From assembly GCA_039934415.1 (NCBI GenBank), contig JBDTME010000001.1, positions 338,785-402,784 of the forward strand: a stretch of DNA of 64,000 bases, given 5' to 3'. The position numbers and the translations under genes are program-made. This document shows, piece after piece, positions 9,196-24,200 of the stretch. The notes below the pieces were generated by a model. That model made no database searches, was not told the origin of the DNA, and was given only the letters and a program-made list of their open reading frames with translations. Source of the DNA: Patescibacteria group bacterium. GTDB taxonomy: Bacteria; Patescibacteriota; Microgenomatia; UBA1400; PJMF01. Numbering within the stretch: the stretch's first letter is position 1; each line of letters begins with the position of its first letter.

Positions 9196-10290
9196 ATGAA
9201 AAAAAAAGTTTTGATTATATTTGGTGGAAAATCGGGAGAGCATGAAGTATCCAATCGATCAGCAAAATCAATTGAACAATACCTTGATAGAGACAAATTT
9301 GAACCATATGTGTTGGGAATCACTTCAGATGGACGTTGGCATTTTGGATCAAGTGTCGAAAGTATCACTAGTAATTTACAAGTATTACCTCCTTCTGAAC
9401 ATGTTTCGCTGCCGACTGAACCAGGCAACAGAGAGTTGACTGTTCAAACAGAAAAAGGATTAGAACATCTTCAATTTGATGTTATCTTTCCAATTATTCA
9501 CGGAACAAATGGAGAGGACGGGAAGCTACAAGGACTATTGGAAATTTCCAATTTACCATATGTAGGAGCAGGAGTAATTGGATCTGCACTAGCAATGGAT
9601 AAAGTAATCCAGAAACAACTTTGTGATGGGCGAGGATTTCCTCAAACTCAGTATGAATGGTTCTGGAAACATGAATGGGAGAAAAGTGAAGATCACATAA
9701 TTGATAAAATAGAAAAAAAATTTGCATATCCAATATTTGTTAAGCCTGCAAATTCAGGTTCAAGTGTCGGCATTACCAAAGCTCATAATAAACAGGAGTT
9801 TATACACGCTGTCAAACTAGCTTTGGAATACGATTTGAAAATCTTGGTCGAAGAGGCAATTCAAGATATTGCAGAAGTTGAAGTGGGTGTACTCGGAAAC
9901 CATAAACCTAAGGCTTCAGTTTGCGGTAGCATCAAACCTAAAGCCGAGTTTTACGATTACCAAACAAAATATGTTACTGATGATATTATCGCAGAGATAC
10001 CTGCTGAAATACCTGCTGATATTTCTGAAAAAATTCGAGCTACAGCAGTAGAGGTATTTCAACTTCTCAATTGTAAAGGTATGGCTCGAGTTGACTTCTT
10101 TTATCAACCTAAAACTGGTAAATATTTTTTAAATGAAATAAACACTTTACCTGGATTCACTTCGACCAGCATGTACCCTAAATTATGGGAAGCAACTGGT
10201 CTTTCCTATACAGATTTGCTATCAGAGCTTATTGTGCTGGCAATTGAAGATTGGAAAGAAAAGCAGACGGTCAACAATAACTTAGAATAA
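9196..10290 (+). CDS. ddl: D-alanine--D-alanine ligase
   Basis: N-terminal 'KVLIIFGGKSGEHEVS'; ATP-grasp C-terminus 'MARVDFFYQPKTGKYFLNEINTLPGFTSTSMYPKLW'. Confidence 0.9.
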   Translation: MKKKVLIIFGGKSGEHEVSNRSAKSIEQYLDRDKFEPYVLGITSDGRWHFGSSVESITSNLQVLPPSEHVSLPTEPGNRELTVQTEKGLEHLQFDVIFPIIHGTNGEDGKLQGLLEISNLPYVGAGVIGSALAMDKVIQKQLCDGRGFPQTQYEWFWKHEWEKSEDHIIDKIEKKFAYPIFVKPANSGSSVGITKAHNKQEFIHAVKLALEYDLKILVEEAIQDIAEVEVGVLGNHKPKASVCGSIKPKAEFYDYQTKYVTDDIIAEIPAEIPADISEKIRATAVEVFQLLNCKGMARVDFFYQPKTGKYFLNEINTLPGFTSTSMYPKLWEATGLSYTDLLSELIVLAIEDWKEKQTVNNNLE

Positions 10291-10292
10291 CT

Positions 10293-11606
10293 ATGAAATC
10301 TTTTTTCTCTAAACTCATAGTAAACTGGTTACGGTTTACTGCACAACTCCAGTTAATGAAAGTGCAGCCATTAGTTATTGGAGTAACAGGAAGCGCAGGG
10401 AAGACTTCTTGTGTACAAGCAATTGGAGTTGTTCTTTCCCAAAAAACGAAGTTGAAAGTGGGCAGAAAAGGCAATAGTGAAACTGGTATCCCAATGGAAA
10501 TTCTGGGAATAAAAGTTGGAACGTATAGTGGATACGATTGGGTGAATGTTTGTCTGCAAGCACTCTGGCAATTGTGTACAAATTGGGAACGGTACGACAC
10601 ATTGGTATTAGAGATGGGAATTGATAGCGACCAATTACCTAAAAACATGTCCCACCAACTTTCAATCGTACAACCACAGATTGGTGTCTTGCTCTCTATC
10701 AGTGGAGTACACGGTCAAAATTTTTCTGGAAAAGATATTCTACAAAGTATTGCCAACGAAAAAGGAAAATTATTAAAATCACTTGATGCAAGTGGTGTAG
10801 CAATTTACTCACTCGATTATTCACAAATTCTCAAGTTAGTTCCACATATCATTGCCAAAAAACTTACTTTTTCATCAAACAAATCATCTGCTGATTTGCA
10901 ATTAATCAAACATGAATTGAGTCTATCTGGGACCACATTCACTTTTCTTCATGAACAAACTACACATTCGCTTCACTTTTCAAAACAACTCCACTTCAAA
11001 GAGTCTTTTGGCACTTTTGCCAGCGCGATTTTAGTCGGACTCGAATTTGGCATCACAGTTGAGGAATCTTGTCACAAGCTTTCTCAAAATTTCCAACTGC
11101 AACCCGGCAGAATGAGTGTGATTGAAGGTAGAAACAACTCTATTATTATCGACTCATCGTACAACTCTTCTTTAGAACCCACCTCTGCTGCCTTAAGAAT
11201 GCTTGATTTGTTGCCTGGGAGAAAAATAGCAGTTCTTGGCGACATGAGAGAACTTGGTGCCTTGGCTCAACATGATCATCAAGAATTGGCCAAACAAGCA
11301 GCTAAATCCGCTAACATCATTGTTTTGATTGGACCTTTGACTTCTCAATACACTTTGTCTCAATTACAACAACTTAATTTTTCAGATAAAAACCTTATGA
11401 GTTTCGCAAATGCATATCAAGCAATCGATACTTTACAAGAAATGATACGACCAAATGATATTATTTTAGTGAAAGGCTCACAAAACACCATTTTCTTAGA
11501 AATCATCGTCAAGGCACTCATGAAACATCCCGACCAATCCTCAGCACTTCTTTGTCGCCAAACTCCCTTCTGGGAAAGACAAAGACTGCAATTAAAACGA
11601 TCTTGA
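10293..11606 (+). CDS. murF: UDP-N-acetylmuramoyl-tripeptide--D-alanyl-D-alanine ligase (Mur ligase family)
   Basis: Mur-ligase P-loop 'VIGVTGSAGKTS'; 'SYNSS..EPTSAALRML' C-terminal domain. Lies immediately downstream of ddl (classic ddl-murF pair). Confidence 0.7.
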   Translation: MKSFFSKLIVNWLRFTAQLQLMKVQPLVIGVTGSAGKTSCVQAIGVVLSQKTKLKVGRKGNSETGIPMEILGIKVGTYSGYDWVNVCLQALWQLCTNWERYDTLVLEMGIDSDQLPKNMSHQLSIVQPQIGVLLSISGVHGQNFSGKDILQSIANEKGKLLKSLDASGVAIYSLDYSQILKLVPHIIAKKLTFSSNKSSADLQLIKHELSLSGTTFTFLHEQTTHSLHFSKQLHFKESFGTFASAILVGLEFGITVEESCHKLSQNFQLQPGRMSVIEGRNNSIIIDSSYNSSLEPTSAALRMLDLLPGRKIAVLGDMRELGALAQHDHQELAKQAAKSANIIVLIGPLTSQYTLSQLQQLNFSDKNLMSFANAYQAIDTLQEMIRPNDIILVKGSQNTIFLEIIVKALMKHPDQSSALLCRQTPFWERQRLQLKRS

Positions 11607-11619
11607 AATTTAGTAAGTC

Positions 11620-12285
11620 ATGTTATACTTTGGACCTATGCAAAAAAAATATCTTTTTTCTATCGCACTGAGTTCATTGATTTTAGCCGGCTGTTCTTCA
11701 TCAGTTGGGGATACAAGTTCTGATATTTCCTTGTCAGATACGAAGGACACTTCAAAACAAACAAATTCTAAACAATTACAAATACCTACCGAGGCGCCTA
11801 TGAAAAAATTAGCAGACTTTGAAAAAATAGATGCCAAAACAGCAGTTATCTCCACAAACAAAGGAGAGATCGAAGTTGAGTTGTATCCAGATATGGCCCC
11901 AGTTACTGTTGCGAGTTTCTTAAGTCTAATTCAGTCCAAGTTCTATGACGGAGTTATTGTTCACCGTGTTGAACCAGGATTTGTCATCCAGGTTGGTGAT
12001 CCGAAAACCAAAGAAGCCGGTAAAGAAGCTGAATGGGGCACTGGCGGACCAGGCTACACTATCCCAGACGAGTTTTCTTCAGACTACAAGTATGATCAAG
12101 AAGGCATCTTGGCTATGGCTAAAACATCAGCACCTAACAGTGGTGGGAGTCAGTTCTTTATCACTTTAGGTCCTGCAGAATTTTTGAATGGCAGTTACAC
12201 CGTGTTTGGTAAGGTAACCAAAGGTATGGACGTCGTCAAAAACATTGCAGTTGGCGATAAGATCACCACTGTAACCTACAAGTAA
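11620..12285 (+). CDS. ppiB: peptidyl-prolyl cis-trans isomerase, cyclophilin type, lipoprotein
   Basis: Signal peptide plus lipobox 'LILAGCSSS'. Cyclophilin core 'FYDGVIVHRV..GFVIQVGDP', 'GILAMAKTSAPNSGGSQFFITL', 'FGKVTKGMDVV'. True start may be ATG 11638. Confidence 0.85.
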   Translation: MLYFGPMQKKYLFSIALSSLILAGCSSSVGDTSSDISLSDTKDTSKQTNSKQLQIPTEAPMKKLADFEKIDAKTAVISTNKGEIEVELYPDMAPVTVASFLSLIQSKFYDGVIVHRVEPGFVIQVGDPKTKEAGKEAEWGTGGPGYTIPDEFSSDYKYDQEGILAMAKTSAPNSGGSQFFITLGPAEFLNGSYTVFGKVTKGMDVVKNIAVGDKITTVTYK

Positions 12286-12325: not shown

Positions 12326-14071
12326 ATGAAAAAAAAGATGAAGGCAGTTGTCTTTGTTGTTGTGCTCTACTGTCTGACCTGTTTGACAGTTGCAGCATTA
12401 GCTTCACTCATTAGTGTAAGTTCTTTTTTTAGATCCCAGTTTGGGGTCAGTAAAACAAGTTCGATCATCGCGCGCGGTGCATTGCTCCCTTATATTCAGC
12501 TTTCCAAAAAAATAAATGGGTCTTTTTTTCTTGCCTGGGAAAAAGGGTTGCTCATAGTAGAAGAAACGCCCAACTTTATCGCCCAAGCACAAAAGCTGCA
12601 GAAGACATATACAGATCATCTTCCCCTCGACCCTCAACTCATCTTTTCAACTCAGATGGAGTATTCAAAATTACTAAATGATTCGATCATCTTGCAACAA
12701 CTCATTTCGGAATCTAAGTTTGCACAAATTCTGTTGCCACTTACTAGCTACGATATCATTCAAAACCAGCTTGCACAAAATGCTCAACTCTTTCAAGCAA
12801 TTGACACTCTGCTCGACTATATCTCAAATCGCCTTGCAGAGAACAAACCAATTTCGCTACTCTTTTTATTTCAAAATAACATGGAACTACGTCCAACCGG
12901 AGGTTTTCCTGGATCCTACGCTACGTTACGCTTGGCCAAAAACGAACCCATTACATTTGAAGTTCAGGATATTTATGTGCCTGATGGTCAATTAAAAGGT
13001 CACGTTGATCCCCCACTTCCCATTCAAGAAGCGTTTCAACAAGGATTTTGGAAATTGAGAGACGCCAATTGGCATCCTGACTTTCAAGAGTCGGCAACTC
13101 GGATTAATTGGTTTTTTACTGAGGCAGGGCATGCTGACATTGACGGAATAGTGGCAATCAATTTCACAACAATTCAGAAACTTTTGGAAATTACTGGACC
13201 AGTTAAAGTGAGTGACCTCAATACAACCGTTACAACAGAAAATATATACCAAATTTTACAAAGAGCTGATGACAAAGACTTTTTTGCAGGCTCAACCAAA
13301 AAGAGGGATACTCTGTCTGCATTCACAACCCAGCTCATTTTTGAATTACAACACCTCCCGCCAAAAAAATATTTTTCGATTATCAGTCTGCTCACCACTC
13401 AGCTGAAACAAAAAGACATTTTGATTAACATTGATGATCCCGATCTGAGTACACTCATCACACTCAATCACTGGGATGGCAAATTAACACCGGTATCTTG
13501 TACTGATGACGGATGCATTCAAGATTACTTTTCAGTCTTTGAAGCAAATTTAGGGGTAAATAAATCCAATTGCTGCGTCAACAGGAACATCACTTTAGTA
13601 AAAGAACGTGATCAACAAGGTCAACTAACTACGACGTCGACCCTCCAATATCATAACCTTGGACCTGGTACTAAATTTGCTGGAGTGGCAGGTGACTACA
13701 GAGCGTTTATCCGCATTTACTTTCCAGCAAACACTCAACTCTCAACATTGGAAATAAACGATAAAAGTTATGAACAGTTTATTGCTGAAATGAAAACAGC
13801 AAAGTACTTCCATCCGATAACCAGTGATAATTTTTCTTGGGGAGATGTAGCTGGACTAAAAGAGCTAGGTATGTGGATTGAAGTTCCGCAAGAAAAAGAG
13901 CTAACAGTCGTAATTAAAACAACTAACGTGCTGTCGCATACACTACCCTACTCAATCATTATCCAAAAACAATCAGGAAGTTCGGATCAATTTAATCAAT
14001 ATAAAGTAAGTCTAGATGACCACATGCTATTTTCCGGAACTATTGCTACAGATGAACTGTTCCAACAATAA
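12326..14071 (+). CDS. large membrane-anchored extracytoplasmic protein, unknown function
   Basis: 581 aa. N-terminal TM 'VVFVVVLYCLTCLTVAAL'; no recognisable catalytic motif. Upstream of a MacAB-like module. Confidence 0.4.
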   Translation: MKKKMKAVVFVVVLYCLTCLTVAALASLISVSSFFRSQFGVSKTSSIIARGALLPYIQLSKKINGSFFLAWEKGLLIVEETPNFIAQAQKLQKTYTDHLPLDPQLIFSTQMEYSKLLNDSIILQQLISESKFAQILLPLTSYDIIQNQLAQNAQLFQAIDTLLDYISNRLAENKPISLLFLFQNNMELRPTGGFPGSYATLRLAKNEPITFEVQDIYVPDGQLKGHVDPPLPIQEAFQQGFWKLRDANWHPDFQESATRINWFFTEAGHADIDGIVAINFTTIQKLLEITGPVKVSDLNTTVTTENIYQILQRADDKDFFAGSTKKRDTLSAFTTQLIFELQHLPPKKYFSIISLLTTQLKQKDILINIDDPDLSTLITLNHWDGKLTPVSCTDDGCIQDYFSVFEANLGVNKSNCCVNRNITLVKERDQQGQLTTTSTLQYHNLGPGTKFAGVAGDYRAFIRIYFPANTQLSTLEINDKSYEQFIAEMKTAKYFHPITSDNFSWGDVAGLKELGMWIEVPQEKELTVVIKTTNVLSHTLPYSIIIQKQSGSSDQFNQYKVSLDDHMLFSGTIATDELFQQ

Positions 14072-14104
14072 GATCCCCTCATTATTTTTCTTGATTTACG
14101 GCAT

Positions 14105-15199
14105 TTGACCGCTTTATACCCCTTTTTTCTTTTTTCCTGGCGGGCTACTATGGTAGTTCAAAGAGATTATTCTATGAAAATTCGCATCAAAACCAACTTC
14201 AAGAAACGATGGAAGTGGTTACTGTTGCTTCTCATTGTCGCCGCCGGCTTGGGATATTGGGTGTATGGCAGAGCAAATCCGAAAGTAGAACAGCTCGATT
14301 TTGTCAAACCAGAGCGCGGTGAACTCATCAAGACTCTGCAAGCATCTGGTTTCATCAAAGCTAAAAGAAATGCTTCCATTCGGTTTGCAGCAGGTGGTAA
14401 AGTCGTTTATTTAGGAGCAAAGGAAGGTGATTGGGTCAAGAAAGGCAAAACTATTGCGACCATTGACGCCCGTGCTTTGCAAAAAGCGTTGGAAAAGTCA
14501 CTCAATCTATACTCAAAGGAACGCATTGATTGGGATCAAGTCCTGGATAACACCAAAGACCGAGCCCTCCCAGTTACTGAAGATCGCACCAAACAAAAAG
14601 ACCAATTCGATTTAACGAATACTGTTATCGATGTCCAGCTTAATGATATCGCCATCACAAATAACGCACTGGTTGCTCCCTTTGATGGAGTACTTGTATC
14701 AAGCCCAACAACAGTTACTGGCATCAATTTGTCTGCCACAGATGCTTTTGAACTAGTAGATCCCACCAGTCTGTATTTTGAAGCACAGGTCGATGAGTTG
14801 GACGTCTCACAAATCCAAAATGGTCAAGGCGCTTCCATTGAACTTGATGCATACCCTGATGAGCACTTTGATTCTTCAGTGCAATACGTTTCCTATAAAA
14901 GTGCACAAACATCCACGAGTACTGTCTACCTTGTTCAGTTGCCAATGGCTCAACTCAATCTAAACAAGTTTAGACTCGGGATGAATGGAGATGCATTGAT
15001 CACACTACAAACTAAACAAAATGTTTTATCAGTTCCTCTAGATGCTATTACAGTCAAAGATGGCAAAACCTACGTTAGTGTCAAATCAGGTGAAAATCAA
15101 GCTGAAGATAAAGAAATTACAACCGGTTTGGAAACTGATGAGAGAATTGAAGTACTGAGTGGATTAGATGACAACGACGAAATTGTGTTACCAAAATAG
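14105..15199 (+). CDS. efflux transporter periplasmic adaptor subunit (HlyD/MacA family)
   Basis: N-terminal TM, then coiled-coil and beta-barrel segments typical of membrane-fusion proteins. The more plausible start is ATG 14174 (MKIRIKTNF). Confidence 0.65.
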   Translation: MTALYPFFLFSWRATMVVQRDYSMKIRIKTNFKKRWKWLLLLLIVAAGLGYWVYGRANPKVEQLDFVKPERGELIKTLQASGFIKAKRNASIRFAAGGKVVYLGAKEGDWVKKGKTIATIDARALQKALEKSLNLYSKERIDWDQVLDNTKDRALPVTEDRTKQKDQFDLTNTVIDVQLNDIAITNNALVAPFDGVLVSSPTTVTGINLSATDAFELVDPTSLYFEAQVDELDVSQIQNGQGASIELDAYPDEHFDSSVQYVSYKSAQTSTSTVYLVQLPMAQLNLNKFRLGMNGDALITLQTKQNVLSVPLDAITVKDGKTYVSVKSGENQAEDKEITTGLETDERIEVLSGLDDNDEIVLPK

Positions 15200-15294
15200 A
15201 GACTAATTTACAATTTTCGAATGTTCAATTTTCAAACTGTTTGAGTGAGGTTCAGTCAATAGACATTTTGAAATTTTGTAAATTGAAAATTTTT

Positions 15295-16059
15295 ATGCTT
15301 CTGCAACTCAAAAACGTTTCCAAAATATATAAGCTCGGTGAAGTTGAAATTCATGCATTGCGTGAAGTCACAATACAAATCAATGAAGGTGAGTTCGTGG
15401 CTATCATGGGTCCTTCTGGTTCTGGGAAATCTACTTTTTTGCAAGTGGCCAGCATGCTCAGCGCAGTGACGTCCGGGCAAATTTTTTTGAAGGATAAACA
15501 AGTAGAAAGCTATGACGAAGTAGAACAAGCTGGGTTAAGGAATAAGGAGATCGGCTTTGTATTTCAACAGTTCAATTTATTGCCTCGCACCTCATCTCTA
15601 GACAACGTAGAACTGCCTCTGTTATACGCCAAAGTGGAAGCGTCAGAACGACACAGACGCGCTCGCGCCATGCTGGAAAAAGTTGGTCTTGGTGACCGAT
15701 TACAAAACACCCCAGCGCAGTTATCAGGAGGACAACAACAACGCGTAGCAATTGCCAGAGCATTAATTAATAACCCAATCATTATTTTTGCAGATGAACC
15801 AACGGGTAACTTGGATTCAAAAAGTGGCGAAGATATAAAAAATATTTTAAAAGATTTAAACAAAGAAGGAAAAACAATCATCATGGTCACACATGAGGAC
15901 GACGTTGCTATGATCGCCAAACGACTCGTTTTTTTTAGAGATGGCGAGATTTGCTATGACGATAAATTTGGCTGGAATAAAAGGCGTGAACAGAACTTAA
16001 AACCAGAAGATCGCAAAGAAATTGAAAGTAAGCTGAAAATGATGAAAAAGAAAAAATAA
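15295..16059 (+). CDS. ABC transporter ATP-binding protein (MacB/LolD type)
   Basis: Walker A 'GPSGSGKST', Q-loop, signature 'LSGGQQQRVAIARAL', Walker B 'IIFADEPTGNLD', H-loop 'MVTHED'. Start set at ATG 15295 (MLLQLKNVSKIY). Confidence 0.85.
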   Translation: MLLQLKNVSKIYKLGEVEIHALREVTIQINEGEFVAIMGPSGSGKSTFLQVASMLSAVTSGQIFLKDKQVESYDEVEQAGLRNKEIGFVFQQFNLLPRTSSLDNVELPLLYAKVEASERHRRARAMLEKVGLGDRLQNTPAQLSGGQQQRVAIARALINNPIIIFADEPTGNLDSKSGEDIKNILKDLNKEGKTIIMVTHEDDVAMIAKRLVFFRDGEICYDDKFGWNKRREQNLKPEDRKEIESKLKMMKKKK

Positions 16060-16060
16060 T

Positions 16061-17287
16061 ATGACATTTGCAGACACCACAAAAATTGCCATCACTTCCA
16101 TTTTTCGCAACAAAGGGCGAGCACTCTTGACCATGTTAGGCATTATTATTGGCGTAGGCTCAGTCGTTTTGCTCACTTCTATCGGTACAGGTTTACAAAA
16201 ATACATCGAAGAGCAGTTTGCCAGCTTTGGTTCAAATGTCATATATCTTGTTCCTGGAAATCCGTTTGGTGATAGCGGTGGATTTGGTAACCCTGAAGAT
16301 GCAATTATTGAACGCACAAAAAAAACGCTCAAGCTGAGCATGATTCCTCAAATCAAACGACAATTTCGCGAACATATTGCCTCAGCAGCTCCTATGTCTC
16401 TGTTCTCTGGCCAAGTGCAATACAAAATAACTGAAAAGAAAGCGACCTTCATCGGAACTACAGAAGAATTAGAGAAAGTTCTCAACAACAAAGCAGCCAA
16501 AGGCCAATGGTTCACTAAAACTGATGTTGATTCAGAAAAAAGAGTCGTACTGTTGGGAGACACTTTAGCGACAGAACTCTTTGGTGATGTCGATCCCATC
16601 AATAAATCAATCAAAATTAATACGGTTACTTTTCAAGTTATTGGTGTGCTAGAGAAAAAAGGCGGTGGTGGTTTTGGTGGACCTAGTTTCGATAGCTATG
16701 GCTATCTGCCATTCGGTACAGCAACAAAGCTGTTTAATAATGACACTTTAAATGAAATTGCCATTCAAGGTAGAAGCAAAGAAGATGTCGAACCATTGGT
16801 CAGTGATATCAAAGGATTGTTAATAGATAAATATAACCTGACAAAAGAAGATTTTACGGTCTTTGAACAAACTCAGATCTTGAATACTATTAATTCTGTA
16901 CTGAGTGTATTAACACTGGGATTAGGGGGCATCGCTGCGATCTCCTTAGTAGTAGGTGGCATCGGCATCATGAATATCATGTTAGTTACTGTCACTGAAC
17001 GTACACGCGAAATAGGTTTGCGCAAAGCGCTTGGTGCAACTCCCAATCAGATTATGTTACAGTTTTTGATCGAAGCCGCTACCTTATCTGTGTTTGGAGG
17101 AAGTATTGGTGTATTGGTTGCCTTTCTTGGATCACTTGCCATTCAACGCTTCTTTCCAGCAGCTGTTACTCTATCAGCTGTCTTGCTCGCCTTCGGTGTT
17201 TCAGCTGCAGTCGGAATTATTTTCGGAGTAGCACCTGCGCGCAAAGCCAGCAAACTCAGTCCGATTGAAGCCTTACGCTCAGAATAA
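16061..17287 (+). CDS. ABC transporter permease, FtsX/MacB-like (large periplasmic loop, four TM)
   Basis: N-terminal TM, about 220-aa periplasmic domain, C-terminal 3-TM FtsX fold with 'TERTREIGLRKALGA'. Confidence 0.8.
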   Translation: MTFADTTKIAITSIFRNKGRALLTMLGIIIGVGSVVLLTSIGTGLQKYIEEQFASFGSNVIYLVPGNPFGDSGGFGNPEDAIIERTKKTLKLSMIPQIKRQFREHIASAAPMSLFSGQVQYKITEKKATFIGTTEELEKVLNNKAAKGQWFTKTDVDSEKRVVLLGDTLATELFGDVDPINKSIKINTVTFQVIGVLEKKGGGGFGGPSFDSYGYLPFGTATKLFNNDTLNEIAIQGRSKEDVEPLVSDIKGLLIDKYNLTKEDFTVFEQTQILNTINSVLSVLTLGLGGIAAISLVVGGIGIMNIMLVTVTERTREIGLRKALGATPNQIMLQFLIEAATLSVFGGSIGVLVAFLGSLAIQRFFPAAVTLSAVLLAFGVSAAVGIIFGVAPARKASKLSPIEALRSE

Positions 17288-17666: not shown

Positions 17667-18758
17667 ATGAATCAACAATTACTCACTTCAGTCGAAGAAT
17701 CACTCTCCAAAGGAAAAGAGTTAGTTTCCGGGATCAACATCAGTGAAAAAAACGCAAGTGTAACTGAACTTGAACAACAAACACTTATTCCTGACTTTTG
17801 GCAAAAAGCTGAGGCCAAGTTCATCATGCAGCAACTTGGGCAACTCAAAAATGATATAGATCAGGTCAATACTGTGGCAAGAGATATCGCTGATGTAGAA
17901 GCGGTACTAGAACTTCTCAGAGAAAGTGAAGATGTAAGCTTGGAAGACGACGTGCGCAGTCAAATGAAAAAATTGCAAAAAAGTAGCAAAGGGCTCGAGC
18001 TGCAACAATATTTAAATGGTAAATACGACTCCTACCCTGCACTGCTTTCAATTCATGCTGGTCAAGGTGGTACTGAGGCGATGGATTGGGCAAGCATGGT
18101 TGAGCGCATGTACACACGATTATTTGAGAGAAAAGGATGGAAATTTCAACTCCTTGATGAGTCACGAGGTGAAGAAGCTGGCATTAAATCTGCCAGCTTT
18201 CTTGTTTTAGGCTCATATGCCTATGGATATTTAAAACATGAACAAGGCACCCATCGATTAGTTCGGCTGAGTCCTTTCAACGCTGATAGTTTGCGCCAAA
18301 CTTCGTTTTCTGGCGTTGAAGTGTTGCCGTATATCGAAGAAGACGACACCACCATCGAACTCAAAGACGAAGAAATTGAGTGGAACTTCAGTCGAGCGGG
18401 TGGAGCTGGAGGACAAAACGTGAATAAAGTAAATACAGCTGTCGAGCTCACTCACATTCCTTCTGGAATTCGAGTGGATGTGCGAACAGAACGAACACAA
18501 TTTGCAAATAGGAAAAAAGCAACACAGATCATGAAAGCAAAACTAGCCGAGCTCGAAGATAAAAAACGCAAACAAGAAATTATGAAAGAGAAGGGTCAAC
18601 ACGTCATGGCCAGTTGGGGAAGTCAAATCCGCAATTATGTTCTTCATCCCTATCAGTTGGTTAAAGATACTCGTACCGAAGTAGAAACTTCAGACACTGT
18701 TGGTGTACTCGATGGTGATTTAGATGAATTTATCATGGCGGAAGTAAAGGCTTTGTAA
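17667..18758 (+). CDS. prfB: peptide chain release factor 2
   Basis: 'SPF' tripeptide (RLSPFNADS) and GGQ motif '[17 protein letters not shown]'. Continuous ORF with no +1 frameshift site. Confidence 0.9.
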
Positions 18759-18803: not shown

Positions 18804-19451
18804 ATGATCCAGACTGTCGACATCCATGATACTGAAAATGATACCGTTGAAATGACTTCGTCGAATGTGACTGAATCATCCACAGTTAATATCCAATCAA
18901 AAAGAAATACTGATATGAAGCCAAAAACACCTGTCATCGTTGTTATTTTATTGGTAGCAATTGTTTCAGGGCTTGCCACTGGGACAGGAATTCACGCATT
19001 GAACCAAAAAGGTGGTTCATTGCTTGGTTCAAATGAATCTGGTTCTATTAAAGAACAGACTCCATCAAGCAGTATTAAAGTTGGCGATGTCTACGGTAGT
19101 CCAAAAGAAGACACTTTTAAAGACAGTGCTGAAGGTGTGTTACAAGCTGGTGGGATTGACGGTGAAGGCACACATAAACTTGTTCGCGCCGGTGGAATCT
19201 CCCAAACAGTATATTTAACTTCTGCTGTCACAGATCTTGATAAGTTTATCGGTGCAAAAGTCAAAGTATGGGGTGAAACAAATACTGCTCAGAAAGCAGG
19301 TTGGTTGATGGACGTTGGTCGAATCAAAGTGGAGGAACTTAATGCAGAAATTCCTGAAGAGAGTAAACCCACTAGTACATCAGCACCTAAGCCATCTGCT
19401 ACTCCAAAAAGTTCTTCGAAAAAAGCAGCACCTACTACTGACGGTGAGTAA
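18804..19451 (+). CDS. membrane-anchored hypothetical protein with S/T/P/K-rich C-terminus
   Basis: Single TM 'VIVVILLVAIVSGLATG'; low-complexity tail 'KPTSTSAPKPSATPKSSSKKAAPTT'. Confidence 0.4.
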   Translation: MIQTVDIHDTENDTVEMTSSNVTESSTVNIQSKRNTDMKPKTPVIVVILLVAIVSGLATGTGIHALNQKGGSLLGSNESGSIKEQTPSSSIKVGDVYGSPKEDTFKDSAEGVLQAGGIDGEGTHKLVRAGGISQTVYLTSAVTDLDKFIGAKVKVWGETNTAQKAGWLMDVGRIKVEELNAEIPEESKPTSTSAPKPSATPKSSSKKAAPTTDGE

Positions 19452-19506: not shown

Positions 19507-20346
19507 GTGCCCATCATCATTTTTGACCATGTGACCATGAACTACGGAGTCGGTGAAAGTGCGCTCGACGACGTCAGTTTTTCTGTAGAACCAGGTGAGT
19601 TCATTCTCATTAGGGGTAAGTCTGGTGCTGGCAAAACCACTCTTGCTCGCCTCCTCGTCAAAGAAGTCACTCCTGCCTCTGGCACAGTCGAATTCGATGG
19701 TCAAGATCTTTCTCACATTAAAAAATCTAAACTGCACATGTTGCGACGTCAGATTGGCACAATATATCAAGACTACAAATTGCTCGGAGAGTTGACCATT
19801 AGCGAAAACATCGCACTCGCTTTACACATAGCTGGAAAGAATAAAGAAGAAATTGAAACTCGCATTCATGACTTACTTCAATTAGTGCAACTTCCCAATA
19901 AAGAACACCTATTCCCTACTCAACTTTCCGGAGGAGAAATTCAACGCGTGAGTATCGCGCGTGCTTTAGCCAATGCGCCAGAAGTATTGTTCGCTGATGA
20001 ACCAACTGGTAATCTTGACAAAGAAACAGGCAACCACATCATTCAAATCTTGAAAAAAATTAATTCATTGGGAACGACGGTCTTAATGTCCACCCACGAA
20101 GACTTTGATTTTACCGATCATCCATACAGACAATTCAAGTTAGAAAATGGCAAATTGACGATCACAGAAAGTAAGAGTTCAAAAGCATCCACAAAAATAA
20201 ATGAGGCAGCAAAACCCACAGAGACCGAAAAAACAGAAAAAATAGAAGAAGCAGAAGAAAAAGCTAAAGAAGAGCAGACGACCAGTAAAATTGCAGAATC
20301 AGCTAAGATTGAAGAACCTACTGAGGAACCTAGTAAAAAGAAATAA
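19507..20346 (+). CDS. ftsE: cell division ATP-binding protein FtsE (with about 55-aa E/K-rich C-terminal extension)
   Basis: Walker A 'GKSGAGKTT', signature 'LSGGEIQRVSIARAL', Walker B 'LFADEPTGNLD'. Immediately followed by an ftsX-like gene. Confidence 0.8.
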   Translation: MPIIIFDHVTMNYGVGESALDDVSFSVEPGEFILIRGKSGAGKTTLARLLVKEVTPASGTVEFDGQDLSHIKKSKLHMLRRQIGTIYQDYKLLGELTISENIALALHIAGKNKEEIETRIHDLLQLVQLPNKEHLFPTQLSGGEIQRVSIARALANAPEVLFADEPTGNLDKETGNHIIQILKKINSLGTTVLMSTHEDFDFTDHPYRQFKLENGKLTITESKSSKASTKINEAAKPTETEKTEKIEEAEEKAKEEQTTSKIAESAKIEEPTEEPSKKK

Positions 20347-20352
20347 CTGCTT

Positions 20353-21231
20353 ATGATGACACATCACACACTAGACGCCTTTCGCGCTATCCGTCGATCA
20401 CCGTACCAAAGTTTGGCAGCGATACTTACACTGACACAAACTTTCTTTCTCGCCTACGTTTTTGTAATATTGATGATAGGTAGTGAAGTCGTACTACGCT
20501 ACTTCGAAACTCAACCCCAAATTAGTGCCTTTTTCAAACCAGATGTGACAGACGAGAAAGTTGCGGATGCTCAAAATCAGATTCAACAAAAAGAGTACGT
20601 CAAATCAGTCAAAAGGGTAACTAAACAAGATGCCCTCAGCACTTATCGTGAAGATAATAAAAACGACCCACTCCTCCTTCAACTAGTGACTGCAGATATC
20701 CTGCCAGCCAGTTTAGAAGTTTCTGCAAAAGACATTCAATCTTTACCACAACTGGAACATGATCTAAAAGCATTACCTGGTATTGATGAAGTTGTTTTTC
20801 AAAAAAATGTCACTGACACGCTTGCCAAGTGGACTCACAATTTACGTTCTGGGGGAATATTTTTAGTAAGTTTAATGGCACTGACTTCCGTCATTCAGAT
20901 GATGGTAATGACTAGTATGAAGATTTCAGCTAAGCGGGGTGCAATTAAAACGATGCAACTTATTGGTGCTTCACGTTGGTATATCAAATCACCTTTTATC
21001 TTGGAAGGTTCCATTTATGGCATCAGCGCTGCTGTATTAGGGTGGTTAGCGACGTACGTATCTATTTTGTATCTAACACCTTGGTTATTAGGTTTCTTGG
21101 GCGACATCCCACTCTTACCAGTTTCACCACTTTTTATGTTCGCGCTCCTTGGAGGAGGAACAATTGTCGGAATTACCATCGGAGCTTTTTCAAGTTTGTT
21201 TGCTGCTCAACACTTTCTACATAAAGACTGA
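20353..21231 (+). CDS. ftsX: cell division protein FtsX
   Basis: N-terminal 'AFRAIRRSPYQSLAAI', periplasmic domain, C-terminal 3-TM bundle. Position after ftsE. Confidence 0.75.
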   Translation: MMTHHTLDAFRAIRRSPYQSLAAILTLTQTFFLAYVFVILMIGSEVVLRYFETQPQISAFFKPDVTDEKVADAQNQIQQKEYVKSVKRVTKQDALSTYREDNKNDPLLLQLVTADILPASLEVSAKDIQSLPQLEHDLKALPGIDEVVFQKNVTDTLAKWTHNLRSGGIFLVSLMALTSVIQMMVMTSMKISAKRGAIKTMQLIGASRWYIKSPFILEGSIYGISAAVLGWLATYVSILYLTPWLLGFLGDIPLLPVSPLFMFALLGGGTIVGITIGAFSSLFAAQHFLHKD

Positions 21232-21270: not shown

Positions 21271-22491
21271 ATGACTTATTTCTCAAGCAAGTCAATGAAA
21301 TTTTTTTTAGTACTGTGTCTTTGTATTGGTTTAGGTTCAATTCCTTTTTTAATGACGCCACGAGCCAGTGCTGAAGAGAGTACAGAAAGCGCTAAAGCGA
21401 GTGAGTTAGAACAAAAAAAACAAAAAATCTCAGAGCTTCAACAGAAACTTCAAGAAATTCAAAGCCAGAAAGTTTCGCTGTCTACCACGATTCAGTACAT
21501 TAATACCAAAATCAGTCTTTCACAAGCTGAAATCGATAAAACCCAAACAGAGTTGGTCAGTTTAGAAAGAGAGGTGGGCGAGTTAGGAACCCGAATTGGC
21601 GGACTCGAACAATCACTGGATGTTCTTTCCGGCGTACTTTTAGATCGAGTCTCAAATCAGTATAAACAAGCACAAGTCAATCCCTTTCAAAGTTTACTCG
21701 TTTCTCAAGATTTGAGTCAGCTGTACGAGCGCACAAAGTACATCAAGATCGTCCAAGAAAAGACTCGTATTATCATGCAACAAGCAGAGAATCAAAAAGG
21801 CATTTTTGACGAACAAAAAAAAATCAAAGAAGAAAAACAAACAGAAGTTGAACAGAAAAAGAAACAACTTGCTCAACAACAACAACAGTTAGCAGTAGAG
21901 CGAACAGGACAACAACAACTTCTCAATGATACTAAAAATAATGAGAGTAAGTATCAGGCTGAATTAGAAAAAACAACGCAAGAGTTGCAAGCTATCCAAG
22001 GAATCATTGCGGGTAAGGGTACGGAGACTGAAGTGCGAAATGTTAACCAAGGTGATCAGATTGCTTCGATCATTGTTGGGGCGTCACCTTGCTCAAATGG
22101 GACTCACTTACACTTTGAAGTTGTTAAAGACGGTACACATCAGGATCCAGCTTCATTCTTATCTCCAGCAGACATTGCCTGGAATAACTCTCCAGATCCT
22201 GCTTTCGCTCTTTCAGGTAGTTGGGCTTGGCCAATCAATAACCCTGCTCGCATCAATCAAGGGTACGGCATGACTTATTATGCTCGAGTACGGCGTGCCT
22301 ATGGTGGTGCTCCACACACTGGAATTGATATGATCAGTAAATCAGGTGGGGATTACGCAGTTAAAGCTGTTAAAAATGGTGTCCTCTTCCGAGGCGGAAT
22401 TGCATGTGGCGGACGAACACTTCAATATGTCAGAGTCATCGATAAAGATAACTCATCACTAAGCACTTATTATCTCCACGTCAATTATTAA
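21271..22491 (+). CDS. coiled-coil peptidase M23 (LytM-domain) protein, EnvC-like
   Basis: Signal peptide, about 200 aa of coiled coil (Q/E/K/L-rich), and M23 motifs 'GTHLHFEV' and 'PHTGIDM'. The motif order is unusual (see findings). Confidence 0.7.
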   Translation: MTYFSSKSMKFFLVLCLCIGLGSIPFLMTPRASAEESTESAKASELEQKKQKISELQQKLQEIQSQKVSLSTTIQYINTKISLSQAEIDKTQTELVSLEREVGELGTRIGGLEQSLDVLSGVLLDRVSNQYKQAQVNPFQSLLVSQDLSQLYERTKYIKIVQEKTRIIMQQAENQKGIFDEQKKIKEEKQTEVEQKKKQLAQQQQQLAVERTGQQQLLNDTKNNESKYQAELEKTTQELQAIQGIIAGKGTETEVRNVNQGDQIASIIVGASPCSNGTHLHFEVVKDGTHQDPASFLSPADIAWNNSPDPAFALSGSWAWPINNPARINQGYGMTYYARVRRAYGGAPHTGIDMISKSGGDYAVKAVKNGVLFRGGIACGGRTLQYVRVIDKDNSSLSTYYLHVNY

Positions 22492-22546: not shown

Positions 22547-23845
22547 ATGACAAAAACCATGCATCTACTCACAGCATTAATACTCTATGTCTTCCTGTTG
22601 CTCTTTTTTCCGGCGGCAGCTTTTGCCAAAATTGAGCTGACATACTCGGCTCCCCCAGCTGAAACTGATGTTGATCATCCATTTACACTTGATGTCACTC
22701 TTTCGGGAGCTGACCAAACCGCAGAGTATTATATTCGCGGTGTATTCTATAAACAAAATACCACGCAATACTTTGGTCTTACTCAAAATAATGATGGAAA
22801 CTGGCAAACAGACACTAACTTAGTGACGCAGTTCTACAAAATAACTGGCAATGGAACGAACACCATAACTTTCAAACCAGATACACATTCCTCAGATCTG
22901 ATTCCTAATACAAGTTATTTTTTTAAAGTAGGTAGATACACTCCAGGCGGTTCACTCACTTGGTCTGAACAAACCCCTGCTGTTGTGTTTCTAAGTGCAG
23001 CAATCACTCCAACCCCATTTGTGACAGTTGCTGTTAATCCCTCACCCACTCCATCAACACCACCTGTAGTTACCCCAACAGCCGTGCCCACAAGTTATAT
23101 CAATCCAAGTTCAATCATCATTTCTGAAGTCATGGCGTGCCCAAATAAAGATGAAGGCGAGTGGGTCGAACTCTTTAACTCTTCAGATTCTAATCAGACT
23201 ATCCACAACTGGAAGATTAAAGACTCCATCGACACACATAATATTGATGTAAGTAGTACGATTTCTGCTCACAGCTATCTGGTCGTGCATATTTCTTCTG
23301 CTATTTTAAACAATGCTGGAGACTCTGTTCGTTTATTCACAGACCAAAATGTATTGAATAGCCAAATGAGTTACATCGATTGTCAAGACGGCACATCATT
23401 TATATTAGTCGATGGGAGTTGGCAAGCAACTCAAACAGTTACTCCAGGATCTACAAACATATTCACACCTGTGGATACTCCTGCACCCACTACTGATGCT
23501 TCTCCCTCTCCAACCCTGTTTATATCTGAAACAGTATCTGAAATACCGATATTAGAAAATACTGTTGATATAGATCTCAATGATCTTTTCGATGAATCAC
23601 TCATTGCAAGTGATTCAACAGAAATGAGTTCAGAATCAGCTGCAATTCTCCCTCAAGAAAGCACCCCTGAGACAAAAATAAAAATAACGTCACAGCAAAC
23701 TGAAAAACCACACAATTCTGTTTTCTCGGCTTCAACAGCGTTTTTATTAGGTGGTGGAAGTTATGTCCTCTCGGCTGCTTTGCTCGCACAGAGATGGTAT
23801 AATTTGAGCTTGTATGCTGTCACTGCCATTTCATCTTCCACGTAA
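22547..23845 (+). CDS. secreted protein with lamin-tail domain (LTD) and C-terminal TM anchor
   Basis: Signal peptide; LTD-like 'IIISEVMACPNKDEGEWVELFNSSDSNQTIHNWKIKD...GDSVRLF'; P/T/S-rich linkers; C-terminal hydrophobic segment. Confidence 0.5.
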   Translation: MTKTMHLLTALILYVFLLLFFPAAAFAKIELTYSAPPAETDVDHPFTLDVTLSGADQTAEYYIRGVFYKQNTTQYFGLTQNNDGNWQTDTNLVTQFYKITGNGTNTITFKPDTHSSDLIPNTSYFFKVGRYTPGGSLTWSEQTPAVVFLSAAITPTPFVTVAVNPSPTPSTPPVVTPTAVPTSYINPSSIIISEVMACPNKDEGEWVELFNSSDSNQTIHNWKIKDSIDTHNIDVSSTISAHSYLVVHISSAILNNAGDSVRLFTDQNVLNSQMSYIDCQDGTSFILVDGSWQATQTVTPGSTNIFTPVDTPAPTTDASPSPTLFISETVSEIPILENTVDIDLNDLFDESLIASDSTEMSSESAAILPQESTPETKIKITSQQTEKPHNSVFSASTAFLLGGGSYVLSAALLAQRWYNLSLYAVTAISSST

Positions 23846-24200
23846 AACACGATTTCAGGTCTATCTTCCGCTGCTTGCCTGGGGATTTTTTATTTTTTTC
23901 TTATCATCACAACCATCTCTACCCAGCCCATCAGTAGTCATTTGGGATTTTGCATTCAAAAAACTGGCTCACATGTTTGTTTACTTTGTCTTTTTCCGAC
24001 TCATGTTTCGGGCTGTTCAGTTTGACGTGACAAATCAGTTTAAAGCTACAGCAATTGCACTCCTTTTATCTATCATTTACTCAATGAGTGACGAACTACA
24101 TCAATCTTTTATACCTGGAAGAACGCCGACAGGTAAAGATGTTTTATTTGATATTTTGGGTATGGGAATTGCTTGGTTAACAATCTTCAAGTATGTCTAG
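23814..24200 (+). CDS. VanZ-like family membrane protein
   Basis: 'SMSDELHQSFIPGRTPTGKDVLFDILGMGIAWL' matches the VanZ signature. Start uncertain; overlaps the upstream ORF by 32 nt. Confidence 0.55.
   Translation: MLSLPFHLPRKTRFQVYLPLLAWGFFIFFLSSQPSLPSPSVVIWDFAFKKLAHMFVYFVFFRLMFRAVQFDVTNQFKATAIALLLSIIYSMSDELHQSFIPGRTPTGKDVLFDILGMGIAWLTIFKYV

Follow-up and report, generated by a model that had tools for sequence, protein, structure and literature searches.

How should a peptidase domain be read when the two halves of its signature stand in the wrong order? We met this question at a gene in a 64,000-nucleotide stretch of contig JBDTME010000001.1 from a Patescibacteria group bacterium (assembly GCA_039934415.1, positions 338,785 to 402,784), here called the window. 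The gene lies behind ftsE and ftsX and encodes a coiled-coil protein with motifs of the M23 zinc peptidases. A first-pass annotation, made by a model from the letters of the DNA, described the M23 signature as split and reversed. It offered two explanations: either one M23 domain, circularly permuted and possibly active, or a pair of partial domains. The alignments and homologues described below go beyond a reading of motifs, and on sequence evidence the catalytic M23 domain has been circularly permuted in nature. The best explanation of the whole, to which we give a probability of about 0.8, is that the protein is a secreted or membrane-proximal M23 peptidoglycan endopeptidase, naturally permuted, under the control of FtsEX and derived from a tandem duplication. 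The parts of the gene are given below, with residues numbered from the longest open reading frame (ORF) and positions on M23 profiles taken from Pfam PF01551 or from our own hidden Markov model (HMM).

21271..22491, forward strand: coiled-coil permuted M23 gene, 406 amino acids; alternative start at 21295 (Met9)
21271..21372, forward strand: putative signal peptide, residues 1-34, with putative cleavage after RASA
21382..22011, forward strand: antiparallel coiled-coil hairpin, residues 38-247, EnvC/PcsB/RipC-like and presumed to bind FtsX (AlphaFold2, Foldseek, weak NCBIfam EnvC match)
22030..22164, forward strand: M23 segment A, residues 254-298; the C-terminal third of a canonical domain, carrying the HxH motif (H279, H281); own HMM 94-136, PF01551 61-96 of 96
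22165..22212, forward strand: connector, residues 299-314, from the old C-terminus to the old N-terminus, with conserved W304, N306, D309 and F312
22213..22488, forward strand: M23 segment B, residues 315-406; the N-terminal two thirds of a canonical domain, carrying HxxxD (H349, D353), Y344 and H403; own HMM 8-88

Order of the M23 segments

PF01551 matches the native protein in two stretches, the better of which places residues 256-293 on profile positions 61-96 of 96, and the protein as a whole scores 32.7 bits, above the gathering threshold of 28.7. When the halves were re-joined in canonical order (residues 313-406 followed by 248-305), Pfam returned one collinear match over profile positions 2-96 of 96 at 44.1 bits. 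The re-joined construct can also be aligned over its full length with M23 domains of known structure (9gy1, SpoIIQ 3uz0/3tuf and 3slu), pairing HTGID with H(N)GID, YYLHV with VYGHV and HLHFEV with HLHFEV. Residues 298-406 alone have no Pfam match, and their M23 nature shows only with filters off or with the halves re-joined. In the native chain HLHFEV occupies residues 279-284, WPI...PHTGIDM follows at 320-354, and the terminus reads YYLHVNY, which puts the end of segment B three residues past H403.

We then used our own canonical M23 HMM, made from 38 canonical M23 domains and run with all filters off. Residues 254-298 of the native protein fall on model positions 94-136 and residues 315-405 on positions 8-88, so that the two pieces add up to exactly one complete M23 profile, without gap or overlap, in reversed order. 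Doubling the domain gave a single collinear match to positions 8-136 that spans the junction (81.7 bits), and the un-permuted construct scored 85.1 bits over the same positions. As a pattern of alignment, this is the standard signature of circular permutation. The break falls between model positions 88 and 94, in the loop directly after the Y-x-H strand that bears H403. Since the protein lacks the collinear order of M23 domains (HxxxD, a further His, then HxH), we file it as a permuted variant and not as an ordinary member. Both profiles therefore agree with the reversed order described in the first-pass annotation; a single collinear match, which would have contradicted it, was not seen in the native protein.

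AlphaFold2, given an alignment of 72 sequences, modelled the full protein with a mean predicted local distance difference test (pLDDT) score of 80, as a helical hairpin followed by a beta-rich domain at residues 253-402. Because Foldseek searches with the full model were dominated by the coiled coil, we re-modelled the domain alone, which folded as one compact unit with a pLDDT of 86.7 and a predicted template modelling (pTM) score of 0.85. A phmmer search of the full protein against PDB sequences gave coiled-coil noise and spurious matches to MBP and PGI only. The connector has pLDDT values of 82-94 in the model of the domain alone, its residues W304, N306, D309 and F312 are invariant in the 72 sequences, and its length resembles that of the inter-domain linker of tandem M23-M23 proteins.

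A model of one chain is also compatible with a swapped dimer, in which segment A of one chain would pair with segment B of another and dimerisation of the coiled coil would build or gate the site. PcsB offers a parallel for such an arrangement, as it is regulated as a dimer in which the domains of partner chains occlude each other (PMC11627006). However, the connector is long enough to join the segments within a chain and is well conserved, the monomeric domain is modelled with confidence (the pTM given above), and the same module ends unrelated large proteins that have no coiled coil. We consider a domain swap improbable and favor a single-chain domain, into which segments A and B would fold with a complete zinc site.

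Catalytic residues and spread of the family

To follow conservation we took 71 representatives of clusters at 50% identity. Four of the five catalytic residues (H279, H349, D353 and H403) occur in 71 of 71, and the fifth, H281, in 70 of 71. The zinc-binding H(x)nD motif is H349-TGI-D353, which aligns with HxGiD of the M23 HMM and of PDB chains, the HxH motif is H279-L-H281, and H403 aligns with "YaHl" of our HMM, the third His (H260 in LytM). Y344 is invariant among the closer homologues and, judged by its position, is probably the equivalent of the oxyanion residue Y204 of LytM. Zinc ligands, water-activating histidines and an oxyanion tyrosine are the residue types described for M23 enzymes in a 2022 review (PMC9662197). 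The near-invariance of the catalytic positions over 71 diverse clusters indicates selection for catalysis and, since the residues under selection come from both segments, argues that A and B form one site. LytM and lysostaphin (M23B; PDB 1QWY, 2B0P, 4ZYB, 4LXC) share HxxxD, HxH and the third His with this protein and appear to match its predicted fold as well. The connectivity of the chain differs: in LytM the third His precedes HxH by about 30 residues, whereas here it follows HxH at a distance of 124. The distance from H403 to the end of the chain is 2-6 residues in all 71 representatives.

Two cysteines, one in each segment, covary, C274 lying five residues before HxH and C379 in a hairpin of segment B. 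Both are present in 42 of the 71 representatives, both are absent in 27, and 2 are mixed, counts that are uncorrected for phylogeny. Among the members without this pair, a shifted pair is found at 273 and 382 (26 each). Together this suggests a disulfide that staples the two segments.

A word-indexed search returned 691 relatives. The best 120 of the 691 are almost all about 370-450 amino acids long with at least 49% identity, and the organisms named among them are Pacebacteria, Woesebacteria and unclassified Patescibacteria. The NCBI copy of the window protein (P0001, from a "Patescibacteria group bacterium") is identical over its 398 amino acids and begins at Met9. The domain by itself was also searched exhaustively with HMMER against 1.84 billion cluster representatives, which gave 232 matches, 89 of them at E ≤ 1e-10. 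The strong matches are collinear over most or all of the permuted domain and place it at the C-terminus of proteins of about 400 amino acids; wherever both motifs could be located in them the order is permuted, with an end of the form Y[YW]LHV.... In the weak tail the matches are to canonical M23 proteins and fall into two stretches. In all, more than 100 full-length homologues from independent assemblies have the identical segment order, and among them no orthologue with the canonical order was met. An assembly artefact or a frameshift was considered as the source of the reversed order and is ruled out by its conservation in independent assemblies.

These results bear on the view that the protein carries two degenerate M23 remnants of a decayed tandem duplication, or the trace of a sequencing or assembly error, and has no composite site. 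Tandem M23-M23 proteins do exist, and 32.7 bits is a weak Pfam score for a native protein. The homologues, however, share the exact order and chain end as well as invariant catalytic residues, the fragments sum to one M23 profile (HMM 8-88 plus 94-136), and the module models as a compact domain. We regard this view as very improbable. Thus, of the two explanations first offered, the permuted and possibly active domain is favored over two partial domains by the collinear re-joined match, the compact model, the invariant residues and the covarying cysteines.

Genome contigs were scanned with the single pattern [CN]S[TSN]GxHLHF[ETM], which takes in many canonical M23 genes and undersamples the permuted ones; the canonical matches served as controls. 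Further members among the matches listed come from Beckwithbacteria, the "Microgenomates group" and metagenome-assembled genomes (MAGs) of Woykebacteria. All members whose source names a lineage, among the matches listed and probably mislabelled MAGs aside, belong to Microgenomates-type Patescibacteria. Four loci (L006, L007, L010 and L011) come from MAGs labelled "uncultured Pseudomonadales" or "Gammaproteobacteria" and have typical Patescibacteria-type arrangements of prfB, ftsEX and permuted M23 gene. The labels of these records are probably wrong.

The sources name members of the family "hypothetical", "Peptidase M23 domain-containing", "CwlO-like" (JGI) or "EnvC". We found no dedicated family in curated libraries: Pfam gives only the weak PF01551 match, and NCBIfam has nothing specific. 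The family is faintly scored and poorly labelled throughout its lineage because domain models and annotation assume HxxxD followed by HxH.

Most members (P0016 onward; alignment A1, columns ~85-130) have, after the signal peptide and before the coiled coil, a motif rich in cysteine, CxxIxCxxxxQxEDxYLxCxKxKQxC. It is absent from the window protein and its closest relatives, P0002-P0012.

The permuted module, together with the connector motif G-x-W-x-W-P, also forms the end of three large, unrelated proteins without a coiled coil, and for this reason we consider it an autonomous domain.

P0201, 1256 amino acids: permuted M23 module at the end, preceded by long helical regions and a membrane segment
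P0208, 894 amino acids: permuted M23 module at the end, with an Exo_endo_phos domain
P0223, 2174 amino acids: permuted M23 module at the end, with a TSP3 repeat

The giant secreted proteins that bear the module (P0201, P0208/P0278 and P0223) span 894-2492 amino acids. They may be lytic effectors or virion-associated proteins.

The ftsEX locus and related hydrolases

The ORF at 21271-22491 lies behind ftsE-ftsX exactly as the first-pass annotation had placed it, with genes for an ABC ATPase and an FtsX-domain protein upstream. The conserved part of this neighbourhood is listed here.

17667..18758, forward strand: prfB-like release factor (PCRF/RF-1 Pfam matches on counterparts in L001, L003 and L004; tblastn 47-60% identity in L001-L010)
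18804..19451, forward strand: small membrane ORF of 215 amino acids between prfB and ftsE (no Pfam match; one predicted transmembrane helix)
19507..20346, forward strand: ftsE, ABC ATPase (PF00005, E 3.5e-36)
20353..21231, forward strand: ftsX, permease with an extracellular domain (PF18075 FtsX_ECD, E 6e-19; PF02687 FtsX, E 1e-10)

The permuted M23 gene begins 40 nt past ftsX. Among thirteen further permuted loci, L001-L013, whose proteins are 32-50% identical to the query, ftsX lies directly upstream in 13 of 13, and ftsE lies upstream of ftsX in all 12 whose contig reaches far enough. A coiled-coil hydrolase or activator is thus linked with ftsE-ftsX in this family. Most of the 13 loci also carry the small ORF and prfB; a homologue of the 215-amino-acid ORF holds the same position in 12 of 13 (48-67% identity) and could be an undescribed component of the FtsEX module of this lineage.

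The remainder of the protein fits this setting. Read by eye, the N-terminus has a hydrophobic core followed by RASA|EE, in keeping with the signal peptide first proposed for it, and the full AlphaFold2 model has a helix at residues 8-21 and low pLDDT at 27-36. There are two candidate start codons: the longest ORF runs from 21271, and Met9 (21295) gives a more typical signal peptide (MKFFLVLCLC...). The anticipated coiled coil of about 200 amino acids appears in the model as long helices at 38-135 and 148-247. In Foldseek searches with the full model the best matches are EnvC chains from FtsEX/EnvC complexes (8tzl_E and 6tpi_A), and coiled coils of PcsB, RipC and RipA score lower. The predicted hairpin resembles FtsX-bound EnvC, whose own hairpin binds two FtsX extracellular domains, and the adjoining gene encodes an FtsX with an extracellular domain. 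The earlier label of an EnvC-like protein controlled by FtsEX is supported by this synteny and, as far as a predicted model allows, by the EnvC matches. The NCBIfam model for EnvC itself (NF008644) gives 21.6 bits against a cutoff of 270 and aligns only the coiled coil, residues 44-256, and the protein is not an EnvC equivalog.

EnvC of E. coli, V. cholerae and P. aeruginosa (PDB 6TPI, 8TZL, 8I6S) is an FtsEX-bound LytM factor of canonical order, whereas the order here is permuted. EnvC has lost its zinc ligands, as have NlpD and DipM (PMC11627006), and acts by activating the amidases AmiA and AmiB; in the window protein all ligands are present, which bears out the earlier remark that both zinc motifs are intact, unlike those of E. 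coli EnvC. A further difference concerns the junction between coiled coil and domain. In EnvC a "restraining arm" helix, which occupies the groove of LytM, links the coiled coil to the N-terminus of the LytM domain (PMC11627006), whereas helix 2 of the window protein enters the first beta-strand after about five residues. In the AlphaFold2 secondary-structure string residue 247 is the last of helix 2 and residue 253 opens the first strand of segment A, with no separate helix between them.

Given the likeness to EnvC in architecture and in the best structural matches, the protein could instead be a non-catalytic regulator whose permuted LytM-type domain binds and activates another hydrolase, such as an Amidase_3 enzyme, upon release by FtsEX. 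LytM factors are often regulators (PMC9662197, PMC11627006), and one source names a member of the family "septal ring factor EnvC". Yet the known regulators EnvC, NlpD and DipM are without zinc ligands, whereas the five catalytic positions here are essentially invariant across the 71 clusters, and no amidase gene was seen beside the locus in the window or in L001-L004. We consider a purely regulatory role unlikely, and a catalytic hydrolase is the reading that we carry forward.

Closer in general plan are PcsB of S. pneumoniae, CwlO of B. subtilis and RipC of M. tuberculosis, which are controlled by FtsEX and combine a coiled coil that docks on FtsX with an active C-terminal hydrolase domain acting directly on peptidoglycan; the coiled-coil fold also matches PcsB- and RipC-type structures (4cgk, 8idc/8idd). 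Their catalytic domains are cysteine peptidases of the CHAP or NlpC/P60 type, whereas the window protein has a zinc M23 domain. Canonical M23 genes also occur behind ftsE-ftsX, in Clostridia, Bacilli and one Mycobacteriales MAG, and include coiled-coil EnvC-like ones (L015, L016, L021, L043). Both motifs were located in five of these (L014, L017, L018, L021, L022), several of which match the coiled coil of the query; HxxxD precedes HxH, HxH lies near the C-terminus in most, and identity to the query is 20-25%. As both kinds of gene sit downstream of ftsE-ftsX, the permuted gene is the positional counterpart of the ordinary FtsEX-linked M23 gene, and the canonical genes are probably its unpermuted counterparts.

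The other genes around the locus are as follows.

9196-10290: ddl, before the DUF4012 gene
10293-11606: Mur ligase, before the DUF4012 gene
11620-12285: cyclophilin, before the DUF4012 gene
12326-14071, forward strand: DUF4012 protein (DUF4012 also precedes prfB in L001, L003 and L004)
14105-15199, forward strand: HlyD/MacA-like adaptor
15241-16059, forward strand: ABC ATPase of a second ABC system
16061-17287, forward strand: MacB-like permease
22547-23845, forward strand: secreted 432-amino-acid protein directly downstream of the M23 gene, with a Lamin Tail Domain, linkers rich in Pro and Thr, and a hydrophobic anchor at the C-terminus
23814-24200, forward strand: VanZ-like membrane protein, overlapping the Lamin Tail Domain gene by 32 nt

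The stretch at 12326-17287 on the forward strand forms a second, type-VII ABC system upstream. The two downstream genes are not conserved beside the M23 gene in L001-L004. No tRNA gene and no Rfam family at the gathering threshold was found in the 64 kb window. Genes for Ddl, for a Mur ligase and for an MraY-type transferase lie in the window, so the organism makes peptidoglycan.

Proposed mechanism, origin and meaning

We propose that the chain, which runs from the coiled coil through the HxH third and a connector of about 16-25 residues to the HxxxD ... Y-x-H two thirds and the stop codon, would bind zinc through H349, D353 and H281, with H279 and H403 activating the water. As in EnvC, PcsB, CwlO and RipC, and in line with what is established for FtsEX systems (reviewed in PMC11627006), the hairpin of long helices would most likely bind the extracellular part of the FtsX encoded just upstream. 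ATP turnover by FtsE would alter the conformation of the coiled coil, and the hydrolase joined to it would thereby become active at the division septum. Since the protein, unlike EnvC, has an intact zinc site, direct endopeptidase action is expected, as in PcsB, CwlO and RipC but with M23 chemistry, and the protein itself would probably cut peptidoglycan cross-links without acting through an amidase.

With the cut in the loop after H403, both the coiled-coil tether and the free C-terminus adjoin the catalytic cleft. We speculate that the permutation could be a new mode of FtsEX control, in which helix 2 is tethered near the cleft and movements of the coiled coil gate catalysis without a restraining arm, the module, stapled by a disulfide, having later spread to giant secreted proteins. 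We hold this idea only tentatively and think it more doubtful than probable.

The permuted domain most likely arose once, in an ancestor within the Microgenomates-type Patescibacteria, when M23 was duplicated in tandem and the outer parts were lost. Proteins with two M23 domains in tandem occur naturally, and a collinear alignment of the permuted domain spans their inter-domain junction (residues 101-235 of P0236 against positions 10-151 of the query domain; a further example is P0225, residues 127-239), in keeping with the route by which permutations usually arise. A common break point and a common connector motif point to one event.

In the open-access literature searched, including the 2022 M23 review (PMC9662197), we found no report of a permuted M23 domain, and as far as we found a permuted M23 protein behind ftsEX has apparently not been described before. 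Among other peptidoglycan-hydrolase folds, the same literature gave no permuted example beyond NlpC/P60. There the circularly permuted families (YaeF/poxvirus G6R, LRAT-like) set a precedent for a natural permutation with a changed order of catalytic residues, in a fold and chemistry unrelated to M23 (Anantharaman and Aravind 2003, cited in PMC6403190).

Few peptidoglycan hydrolases and regulators have been studied as much as the M23/LytM domains (lysostaphin, LytM, EnvC, NlpD, MepM and the Csd proteins), which are also targets of enzybiotic engineering. The finding is not a new kind of system, and its interest is mainly for specialists in cell-wall hydrolases, FtsEX and protein topology. A natural permutant indicates that the M23 fold tolerates new termini beside its active site, which is useful in protein design. 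It is also an experiment of nature on the transmission of force from FtsEX to a hydrolase. For the organisms themselves, the family is probably the septal hydrolase of a large uncultivated group of ultra-small bacteria whose division machinery is poorly known.
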